Shown: positions 41,101 to 44,100 of the stretch, in pieces | Layout of the letters: each line of letters opens with the position of its first letter | Position numbering within the stretch: position 1 is the stretch's first letter | Assembly: GCA_963693365.1 (NCBI GenBank) | Contig: CAVNZM010000004.1 | Location: 268,448-332,447, forward strand | Direction of reading: 5' to 3' | Source of the DNA: Amoebidium appalachense | Taxonomy: Eukaryota > Protista > Ichthyosporea | DNA: 64,000 nucleotides | Position numbers and translations under genes: made by a program | Notes under the pieces: generated by a model | Told to the model about the DNA's origin: nothing | Databases searched by the model: none | Seen by the model: the letters and a program-made list of their open reading frames with translations, nothing else

Positions 41101-44100
41101 CTACTCGTGCTTGATCGTCCACGTCTTGACGGTGCTGTCCTGCCCGCCAGACACAATGGTGTCCTCCCCCAGCCAGTCCACACAGTTGACACTGCCCACG
41201 TGCGCATCTGGGGCAGGGCGGGCATGTGAGAAGAGGGTGGTTGCCAGGCGTAGGAAAGGGATGCAAGATGTAACGAGGATCATGTTGCCGTGGGTGGAAA
41301 GTGTGGCAAGGCAAACTCAATCAAACCGTCACACCTCCAATTTAGGATTGACTTCTGTGCTGCAGTAGGCAGTTCAAAGGTAATCTGCAGTCGTAGCTTC
41401 ACAGAGGCAAGGAAGACAGCTGTGCACGGCAAGCAACAGGATGCAAATACATACGAACACTAACACCGGCGGTGTTTTTTTTTTGTTTTTTTTGTTTTTT
41501 TTTTTTTTGGGGGGGGGGGGGGGGGGGGGGTTTGAATGCGTCAAAAAGTACGAAGTACACAAGAACAAACGGATAACACGATGCAGAATGCAAGCCATAC
41601 ATAAAGAGTATGCATAATAAGCAGAGCCCATCCTCAGGGGGGGCCCACGTCATCCACAGTACCCGAGTTTCGACCTATTCCCCTCGTTAACGAAACCCAA
41701 CTCAGATACTGTTTCACTTGAACATGAGCAGGTCACCCGTCTTGATCAGAGACGAGCAGGGTTGCTTATGCAGGCAAGGGCAGTGGGAAAGGCCTGGGGT
41801 TAAAGTTGCAGCAGTAAGCAGAAGCAAGAAAAATATAGATAGGAACTCAGGAGACGGGGCTTCTAGGAAGCTCCCCCGTCGATACCTAAGTCGATACTTC
41901 CCTGGCTAACATACTACACCAGCTGAAAAGAATTAAGTCCCGAAGGCCACAGAATTCGTAATCAGAGGGGAAAATATGAGATTTGACCCACGCCGCAGGG
42001 TAGTAACACGCTTACTAGGGCGGAACTTTATCGTCTTCGAACGGAAAGCTATGCCCCCGGATGTCAGCCGGAAATATGGTATCACCCATTGCTTTGGGCT
42101 TGAAAAAAGCCAAACCGATAGTCCGAGTTATGTTACGCCGGCGGGTAACATGCCGCATGGGTTCCAAGGGAGCTGTCGCCAACAGAGCGGTGTGTGCATG
42201 CGTGCGCGTAACGCAATGTGTGAAGTGTGTCTATAGCTATGAAAGGGGGTATGCAGAAGTGGACAGATGAAGTGTGTGGAGAGAAAAACAGTAAGAAGAA
42301 AAGTAGACACCGGTATGTGCAACCCCGCACAACATCACACACACACACACACACACACACACACATAAATAAGCGAAGATTACAGGTAATCAACCAGAAC
42401 AACAAATGACAAGCAAAACAACAGGCGCCAAAAAAAAAAAAAAAAAAAAAAAAAAAAAGGAGGAAAAAGAAAGAGAGAGAGAGAGAGAGAGAGAGAGAGA
42501 GAGAGAGAGAGAGAGAGAGAGAGAGAGAGAGAGAGAGAGAGAGAGAGAGAGAGAGAGAGAGAGAGAGAGAGAGAGAGAGAGAGAGGGGGGGGGGGGGGGG
42601 GGGGGAGGGGGAGGGGAGGGGGAGGGGGTCTTAGGGATGCTGCAGAATCGTCAGATATTAGACAAATCGTACCAATACGATCATTCTCTCATATATGTGA
42701 GAAGATTGTGACTAACGATGTGCAGATCTGGTTAAGACCTGTTGGGTGTGCAGAGAAAATGGGAGGGGAAGGAGGGAGGGAAAGGGGGAGGGGGGGGGGG
42801 GAAGTAAGAGAGGGGAGGGAATGTTAGAGTGTCAGTAGTCTCAGGGGACCCTGCAGAGTCGTTAGATGTCAGACAAAAACGCACCAACGACCAAGTTCTC
42901 CGAGGGGAGAAATGCGTAAAACGTTCTGCAGAGTGGGTTAGAGACCTGCTGATGAGAAGAGTGTATACAGGGTTTGGCCAGGGGGGGGGGGGGGGGGGAA
43001 AGGGGGGGAAAAAGAAGGTAGGAGGGGAAGGGGGGGGGGGGGGAGGAGAAGGGGAAAAAAAAAAAAAAAAAAAAAGGGGGGGGGGGGGGGGGGGGGGGGG
43101 GGGGGAGAAAAAAAAAAAAAAAAAAAAAAAACCCTGTGGTGGACAGATCAGAGACGAGACCTCCATTTGGGGGGGGGGTATGTACTATTCGAAGCCGTCA
43201 AAGAGTTAACAAGCAAGAGGAAGAGAGTATGTGCATGCAAGGATGGTTAGGTGAGATAAGAAGTAACGTAGACAGGACACGTACTCTTGATCTGGATGCG
43301 CTTTGAGGGAGTCTGGATGCTCCACACGAAGATGTTTGTGTCCAACCCCCCCGACACAATGTAGTTGCCACTGGGGGCCCAGGCCAGGCTGTTGACCTTT
43401 GCACTGTGGAACACCCACCCGCTGATCTCTTTCTGTGGCCCCACACAACACGGTCAGCAAAGGGTAACCGGCAAATTCCCAGCTAGAGTGCCACATGAAC
43501 GTGTATACATGCAGCAGATGCATGGGATGTGAGGACTTTGTGCACTGAGACACCTGCACAGGTGCATCCTTCCACCCACCTCGTATGCCGGCACAGACCA
43601 GACGAAAATGTTGCGGCCAGAGTCACCCGTGGCCAGTCTGCTGCCGTTGGGGGAATAGGCCAGGCATGTCACCTGCACCCATCCAGCCGTTAGTGTCGAA
43701 ACCCCCCATATCGATCCCCTTTCAGACACACCGTACGCATGCATGCAGACACGCACCTCCAACAATTCATGCAAAGTCTTTTGCCATTACCACTTCAACA
43801 GAAAACTACCATTTGCCCAGCCACCCACGCCACCTGCACACATGCTTCAGCAAGGCTAACCACACACACACACACACACAAAAAAAAAAAGCTGGGGAAA
43901 CCTTAGGAAAACACCCACAGCCCCCCCCCCCCCCCCAACACACACACACACACACACACACACACACACACACCAGCCCCCCCCCCCCCCCCCCCCCCCC
44001 CGGGGGGGGGGGGGGGAAACAAGAAAAAGAAAAAACAATAAAGGGAAAAAACCTCACCTGGCCCTTAGCATCCACTGCCTTTGTCTCCTCCAGGCCACTG

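Follow-up and report, generated by a model that had tools for sequence, protein, structure and literature searches.

The window analysed here is a stretch of 64,000 nucleotides from the ichthyosporean Amoebidium appalachense (GenBank assembly GCA_963693365.1, contig CAVNZM010000004.1, positions 268,448 to 332,447 of the forward strand). It contains a gene for a WD40 protein, within which lie two copies of a structured RNA:

41101..51290 (approximate span), minus strand: host gene, WDR1/AIP1-like WD40 protein
41612..41775, minus strand: copy 1 of the structured RNA, a predicted split-core hammerhead ribozyme (BLAST, alignment, descriptor)
48490..48912, minus strand: copy 2, second subfamily, with its predicted ribozyme portion at 48623-48792

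The closest named relatives of the host gene are WDR1/AIP1. One of its exons matched a transcriptome protein at 100%, followed at 79% by one whose identifier begins with 'Ihof' (a prefix that we take to stand for Ichthyophonus hoferi) and, lower, by named WDR1/AIP1 proteins. An earlier note on this DNA had described a structured RNA duplicated in two WDR1 introns. BLAST confirmed two structured copies on the minus strand, at 41775-41612 and 48792-48623 (72% identity over 303 columns, E 1e-37), and 131 of the 170 columns of the aligned ribozyme portions were identical. Their intronic location also held, since tblastn of translated ORF P0001 together with the splice sites placed both intact copies in introns, on the sense strand of the WD40 gene, with copy 2 within an intron at about 49192-48339 and copy 1 within the last intron at about 43284-41207. 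The view of a two-copy element did not hold, as five more copies were found in the window and related sequences on thousands of contigs. Copies 1 and 2 are two subfamilies, and loose ends of contigs show that their upstream sequences differ.

The same gene holds other repeats. A 44-nt tandem array (44154-44660) starts at a WDR1 splice donor and presents a GT-donor-like sequence about eleven times. In the last intron, a second repeat occurs as two diverged copies of about 120 nt, 42826-42952 and 42624-42745 (both minus strand), which are 79% identical over 43 nt and are each followed by a C-rich run. They share a weak common fold (24 pairs, 2 two-sided changes) with no Rfam match, and this repeat is possibly another (C)n-associated element end.

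A profile built from the two copies found five partial copies elsewhere in the window, distributed over both strands, with a common 3' end and shortened 5' ends (best match on the reversed window, as background, E 0.0016). These copies and the segments flanking the copy-1 ribozyme are as follows:

41507..41611, minus strand: 3' terminal segment of the copy-1 repeat, with AAC and a C run at its end
41790..42200, minus strand: sequence that probably belongs to the copy-1 element upstream of the predicted ribozyme, boundary approximate (from word shares in sequencing runs and contig loose ends)
27227..27446, minus strand: decayed copy with damaged core words (nhmmer E 1.3e-11, covariance model E 4e-4)
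29299..29420, plus strand: 5'-truncated copy reduced to its 3' end, followed by a C run (E 2e-13)
15218..15302, plus strand: 5'-truncated copy flanked by two C runs (E 2.4e-9)
21488-21615 and 21641-21741, plus strand: two 5'-truncated copies, head to tail (E 1e-8 and 3.3e-6)

Six of the seven window copies lead into a C tract of at least 7, and the decayed copy has only 3 C. The conserved downstream block reported earlier is indeed conserved; it is the 3' terminus of the repeat, common to the five truncated copies. Family sequence in copy 2 extends to at least 48860; the copy has C-rich runs on both sides, and its 5' end probably lies near 48912. In one contig, 48860 is followed, after 101 letters, by 48509, which makes a head-to-tail repeat of about 453 nt. 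At several contig joints, a truncated copy led through a C run to the 3' end of a neighbour. A full-length element with pseudo-LTRs around it was not seen. Because the repeat ends within C runs, target-site duplications are unreadable.

Six sequencing runs were compared in all. Contigs on copy 1 numbered 7,803, 8,719, 5,297 and 2 in four runs, and those on copy 2 numbered 9,085, 13,531, 233 (run X11, whose RNA nature is a guess and which is not taken as expression evidence) and 5, the runs X16 and X17 yielding just 2 and 5 contigs. Summed contig depth is not equal to copy number and no conversion was made. Of the words that make up 41090-42300, a share of 0.46-0.56 occurs in each of three runs of 2-3 million letters. 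The earlier note had named a high-copy transposon as a result that would speak against its reading; with 5,297 to 13,531 contigs in each of three genome runs, the element is a high-copy repeat, and the likely function shifts from WDR1 to a mobile element. Such abundance does not remove selection on structure.

Both intact window copies lie in sense orientation in the WDR1-like gene, as would be expected of a WDR1-specific intronic regulator, riboswitch or splicing ribozyme. We nevertheless judge this explanation very improbable, given the thousands of related contigs, the five more window copies on both strands and the different subfamilies of the two WDR1 copies. The latter are most likely passengers, and nothing in the present data points to their domestication. 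If active, the sense copies would cut WDR1 pre-mRNA within introns. Intronic hammerheads are known in animals (PMC6155905).

Among the copies, three truncated ones end in CTAAACCC (21590-21615 and 21720-21741 on the plus strand, 27227-27240 on the minus strand), and one of them adds a TAACCC unit. These CTAAACCC/TAACCC ends resemble telomeric repeats, and Penelope-like reverse transcriptases (RTs) are kin of telomerase. Three truncated copies lie among the exons of a gene at about 13000-23000 (plus strand), which we take, from its translated peptides, to be a plasma-membrane Ca2+-ATPase-like gene.

The structure predicted for copy 1 comprises the following parts:

41631..41637, minus strand: core C3-A9, CUGAGGA (copy 2: 48642-48648)
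41668..41671, minus strand: core G12-A15.1, GAAA (copy 2: 48679-48682)
41699..41701, minus strand: GUU triplet (G16.2, U16.1, U17)
41698-41696 with 41640-41638, minus strand: stem I, 3 bp in copy 1; copy 2 has 4 bp, with A-U replacing G-C at the third pair
41734-41730 with 41676-41672, minus strand: stem II, the pseudoknot of the earlier note, 5 Watson-Crick bp, U-A to C-G in copy 2
41711-41701 with 41667-41657, minus strand: stem III, the earlier stem c
41728-41722 with 41650-41644, minus strand: linking helix, the earlier stem b, connecting the far ends of stems I and II
41761-41759 with 41629-41627, minus strand: helix X, part of a predicted crossover module at 41627..41761
41757-41735, minus strand: hairpin H, adjoining helix X in the predicted crossover module
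41769-41763 with 41623-41617, minus strand: closing stem a

All stems named earlier are present in both copies, with 39 of 39 pairs formed, a count that takes in the pseudoknot plus two pairs from one more helix. Three of these pairs changed on both sides, four on one side and none was broken; the linking helix keeps 7 bp in both copies, with one two-sided change. The earlier stem set missed stem I, which reads GGG/CCC in copy 1 and GGAG/CUCC in copy 2. A selected structure with a covarying pseudoknot is supported, as had been proposed. With only two full copies aligned, the changes over the whole set of pairs do not amount to significant covariation, 78 of 500 shuffles reaching the observed level (slid registers paired only 30-46%). 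Two stem II changes within contigs on copy 1 occur at similar low shares, 2.4-3.5% and 3.1-4.1%, which are separate frequencies and not linkage between the two changes.

Single-sequence folding gave modest z-scores (-0.67 and -2.25). The terminal hairpin described earlier stands as a nested-folding prediction and is incompatible with helix X of the hammerhead fold. Nested folding forms a hairpin around CUGAGGA, with the core in its loop, at a pair probability of 0.99 in copy 1 and 0.35-0.52 in copy 2, and this hairpin and helix X are mutually exclusive. In a 276-nt context, copy 1 loses stems a and b in nested folding. Both stem I, at 3-4 bp, and helix X, at 3 bp with a U.U at the junction, are short. 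As a separate observation, a joint from 41634 to 41731 in runs X1 and X10 marks one locus apparently without the stretch between the stem II strands, as if reverse transcription had jumped over the paired helix; this locus carries a third subfamily sequence, like that of the decayed copy at 27227-27446.

The hammerhead core consensus, C3 U4 G5 A6 N7 G8 A9, G12 A13 A14 A15.1 and U16.1 H17 (PMC3088659), is complete in both copies. Core positions were identical between them at 13/13, stem positions at 74/88, linker positions at 11/19 and others at 33/50. Contig variant tables show no core change, which is no proof of core invariance because the tables are incomplete, with differences missing between them. 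Stems I, II and III adjoin the core in hammerhead register, with closing pairs G-C, G-C and A-U and lengths beside the core of 3-4 bp, 5 bp (with the upstream strand) and 8-11 bp, respectively. Stem II closes with G10.1-C11.1 next to GAAA, and stem III ends at the A15.1-U16.1 pair. The predicted cut would fall at 41699/41698 in copy 1 and 48714/48713 in copy 2. Of the functions offered earlier, a ribozyme is likely and its class can be named as hammerhead, while riboswitch function and branching are without support.

Hammerhead searches take three unbreakable blocks in six possible orders, and block C has been held uninterruptible, with the 5' strand of stem II within 2 nt after CUGANGA (PMC10085705). 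In both copies the block order is S-G-C, and the orders of types I, II and III (CGS, GSC, SCG) do not occur. Compared with these Rfam types, the core letters and three stems are the same, whereas the strand order is no circular permutation of theirs. Block C is interrupted as well: the best 5' strand of stem II begins about 100 nt upstream of A9. The chain after A9 enters helix X, the partner of helix X runs on into hairpin H, and the 3' end of hairpin H leads into G10.1. We consider it likely, and hold with reasonable confidence, that the 3' end region of this high-copy repeat carries a hammerhead with a break in its catalytic strand between A9 and G10.1.

The nearest known relative in layout is type SGC, which cleaves in vitro and requires its linking helix (Eckert et al. 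2023, PMC10085705). The repeat shares with the type-SGC ribozyme HRIMA-1 the S-G-C order, a pseudoknotted core, all conserved core letters and a 5' strand of stem I linked directly to the 3' strand of stem II, and its stem b is the positional equivalent of the type-SGC 'I' helix, which joins the outer sides of stems I and II (PMC10085705). It differs in that block C is split, the 5' strand of stem II and its half of the linking helix coming first rather than after CUGANGA; moreover, the repeat RNA adds helix X and hairpin H and has a linker of 19-22 nt instead of about 3. The repeat is eukaryotic and nuclear, whereas no SGC form was found in genomes of known organisms according to the sections of PMC10085705 consulted.

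A plain type-SGC hammerhead is formally possible if stem II pairs with the strand after CUGAGGA, at the cost of a 2-nt insertion, the upstream strand then being an inhibitory competitor. Such a contiguous stem II would have 4 bp in copy 1 (2 Watson-Crick) and 6 bp in copy 2 (3 Watson-Crick), rich in G-U, and hammerheads with 1-2 nt insertions and weak stems II are known (PMC10085705, PMC3088659). However, its duplexes are weaker (-1.5 and -5.1 kcal/mol versus -5.4 and -7.1 kcal/mol with the upstream strand), helix X is lost, and both the upstream-strand change that matches the 3' strand and the position of stem b are left unexplained. By eye, this pairing is also impossible in two Naiad consensus sequences, Naiad_Plae and Naiad_Amil, where the bases that follow CUGAUGA are not complementary to the strand preceding GAAA (PMC8557442, supplement passages viewed). 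We regard it as quite unlikely.

We then used a loose descriptor that accepts any block order and permits a detached stem II strand. Across the 64 kb, it matched the copy 1 and copy 2 sites only, and among 40,000 dinucleotide shuffles of each copy, read on both strands, it matched a single one, and none at the observed quality; without stem II, the count was 5 of 40,000. These shuffle figures are somewhat flattering because the descriptor was composed after the sequence was seen. In a control on 128 viral loci, it recovered 37 type II and 1 type I hammerheads, and both window copies pass it. Those loci, which were preselected for both core words and come from part of the collection, contained 0 examples of the split form with crossover. 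Canonical type I, II and III readings, as well as the plus strand, were rejected. In the IMG/VR loci L013-L140, the 37 of 128 ordinary type II hammerheads were in several cases clustered on one contig (L020, L021).

Rfam gave 0 matches at gathering score in the 64 kb and 7 weak matches in 41200-43300, none of them to a ribozyme family; a permuted order would probably escape models of types I-III. A chance resemblance to hammerheads in a structured repeat of another class, such as a SINE or a Helitron end, would fit this Rfam result and the post hoc descriptor. Set against the 1 to 5 matches in 40,000 shuffles and the recurrence of the layout in Naiad consensi (PMC8557442, in the supplement parts viewed), we find it scarcely credible. 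A pattern scan of viral contigs returned 0 homologues. Another 12 metagenome and 6 prokaryote-genome loci from the pattern scan were judged to be chance matches (covariance model, 0/18 at E 0.1), and flanking similarity was absent from the 12 loci inspected.

Apart from its predicted ribozyme, the repeat resembles Naiad/Chlamys Penelope-like elements. Chlamys elements target (C)n, are 5'-truncated and are partly tandem (Craig et al. 2021, PMC8557442), and the repeat shows the same 5'-truncation with a common 3' end, partial tandems and microsatellite targets. Its AAC+(C)n end is common to the (C)n-targeting Chlamys-1 and Chlamys-2_cRei consensi, and in Naiad/Chlamys insertions, too, microsatellite targets hide target-site duplications (PMC8557442). 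Unlike these elements, the repeat has no ORF that we could find: upstream of copy 1 there was no ORF or Pfam domain (Pfam, 6 frames, 0 families), and next to copy 1 no ORF with an N-terminal GIY-YIG endonuclease, a CxC motif and an RT. As an RT/endonuclease ORF was not found, the Penelope-like assignment is indirect. Ichthyosporeans are not among the Naiad hosts, nor in the Chlamys rows seen, of File S1 of PMC8557442.

Naiad/Chlamys elements are reported to lack canonical hammerheads, and some Naiads are marked as HHR_core or HHR_half_core without a fold (PMC8557442). We compared the Naiad sequences by eye alone, and 7 of 54 consensi repeated the strand order of the window copies close to the 3' end, in unrelated letters. 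They fall into four independent types: Naiad_Plae; Naiad_Amil, Naiad_Aacu and Naiad_Anas; Naiad_Bfor; and Naiad_Obim and Naiad_Ovul. In the published listing, these seven are blank, HHR_core or HHR_half_core. The header of Naiad_Plae was seen, and the other six were named from the following header and the order in File S1. The part of the supplement covered comprises 59 of 81 CGAAAC places, 16 places of three other motifs and two whole parts, line-broken motifs being missed.

By eye, Naiad_Plae has a helix X of 5 bp and a hairpin H of 8 bp, flush, with 6 bp in stem II, 8 in the linking helix, 5 in stem III and 6 in stem I. The Naiad_Amil/Aacu/Anas type has a flush helix X of 6 bp, then 6 bp in stem II, 9 in the linking helix, 12 in stem III and 6 in stem I. 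In both Naiad_Plae and Naiad_Amil, helix X lies flush against A9 and hairpin H. Weaker cases are Naiad_Bfor (2-bp stem I), Naiad_Aacu (a stem II mismatch) and the octopus consensi (short helix X). The Chlamys passages viewed in the PMC8557442 supplement contained no split form. Separately, apparent contiguous C-S-G hammerheads were read by eye in Naiads from Pristionchus, Nippostrongylus and a spider (PMC8557442, File S5), a permutation (type CSG) of which only two metagenome sequences are known (PMC10085705, in the text consulted). Taken together, the predicted ribozyme looks Naiad-like and the target Chlamys-like, and the repeat is likely a short non-autonomous Penelope-like retroelement.

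The repeat is also like the non-LTR retrozymes, which are short, non-coding, hammerhead-bearing repeats with head-to-tail occurrence and are likely mobilised by Penelope-like elements (bioRxiv 10.64898/2026.07.22.740005). Retrozymes carry a type I hammerhead per unit, form tandem arrays and are reported to be excluded from introns, according to the parts of the preprint consulted. By contrast, the repeat lacks a type I hammerhead, has a split S-G-C core, and its window copies are intronic monomers.

The strands of the fold follow one another as helix X 5', hairpin H, stem II 5', linking helix 5', stem III 5', the cleavage site, stem I 5', the linker, stem II 3', GAAA, stem III 3', linking helix 3', stem I 3', CUGAGGA and helix X 3'. 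This layout corresponds to the S-G-C ring of non-circular hammerheads (SGC, GCS, CSG) opened at a fourth point, within block C. By stacking on hairpin H, helix X would make a four-way crossover that parks A9 beside G10.1 without a covalent link, a geometry suggested by the chain path, and the RNA could then fold into the hammerhead active site. It would cut after GUU, at a distance from the 3' end of the element of about 170 nt in copy 1 and about 200 nt in copy 2. Cleavage would process read-through or tandem transcripts, and an autonomous Naiad/Chlamys-type RT-endonuclease may insert the copies into (C)n runs.

A different outcome would be a catalytically dead or protein-dependent fold derived from a hammerhead and kept as an RT binding or priming site. 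The short stems I and X and the competing hairpin agree with it, as does the persistence of intact copies in sense introns of a housekeeping gene. It also has a precedent in a Poseidon Penelope-like element, whose hammerhead cleavage is protein-dependent and dispensable for insertion in vitro (PMC11167929); given that case, the biological role is not settled by cutting alone. Yet neither subfamily has lost any of the 13 core positions, nor, by eye, have distant Naiads, and an in-register cleavage triplet would not be expected of a dead fold. We consider this alternative unlikely, while allowing it some weight.

A validated hammerhead broken between A9 and G10.1 was not found in the literature covered, which excluded bioRxiv supplements and most of the supplement of Eckert et al. 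(2023). In the search, which ran without subscription papers, neither a hammerhead broken at this A9/G10.1 point nor permuted forms in Naiads were described, and the term 'type-SGC' occurred in one paper only. The split form is not described in the parts consulted of PMC13725137, PMC3088659, PMC10162972 and bioRxiv 10.64898/2026.07.22.740005. The main text of the ichthyosporean genome paper PMC11244446 has 0 mentions of Penelope or ribozyme, and the same applies to a 2026 retrotransposon preprint.

Overall, we lean towards a split-strand hammerhead that represents a seventh natural layout, rejoined by a crossover. It would be at once the hidden ribozyme of a Naiad branch (from ctenophores, corals, acanthocephalans and octopuses) and that of an abundant repeat in a unicellular relative of animals, with the sister type CSG in other Naiads and non-circular forms common in eukaryotic genomes. 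If true, a split catalytic strand would break the assumption of unbreakable blocks (PMC10085705), and present descriptors and Rfam would miss a whole class of hammerheads. A9/G10.1 would be a new insertion point for ribozyme engineering. The same finding would explain why Naiad elements seemingly have no hammerheads yet keep half cores (PMC8557442), and it would provide the first genomic high-copy home of non-circularly permuted hammerheads, as opposed to metatranscriptome rarities.
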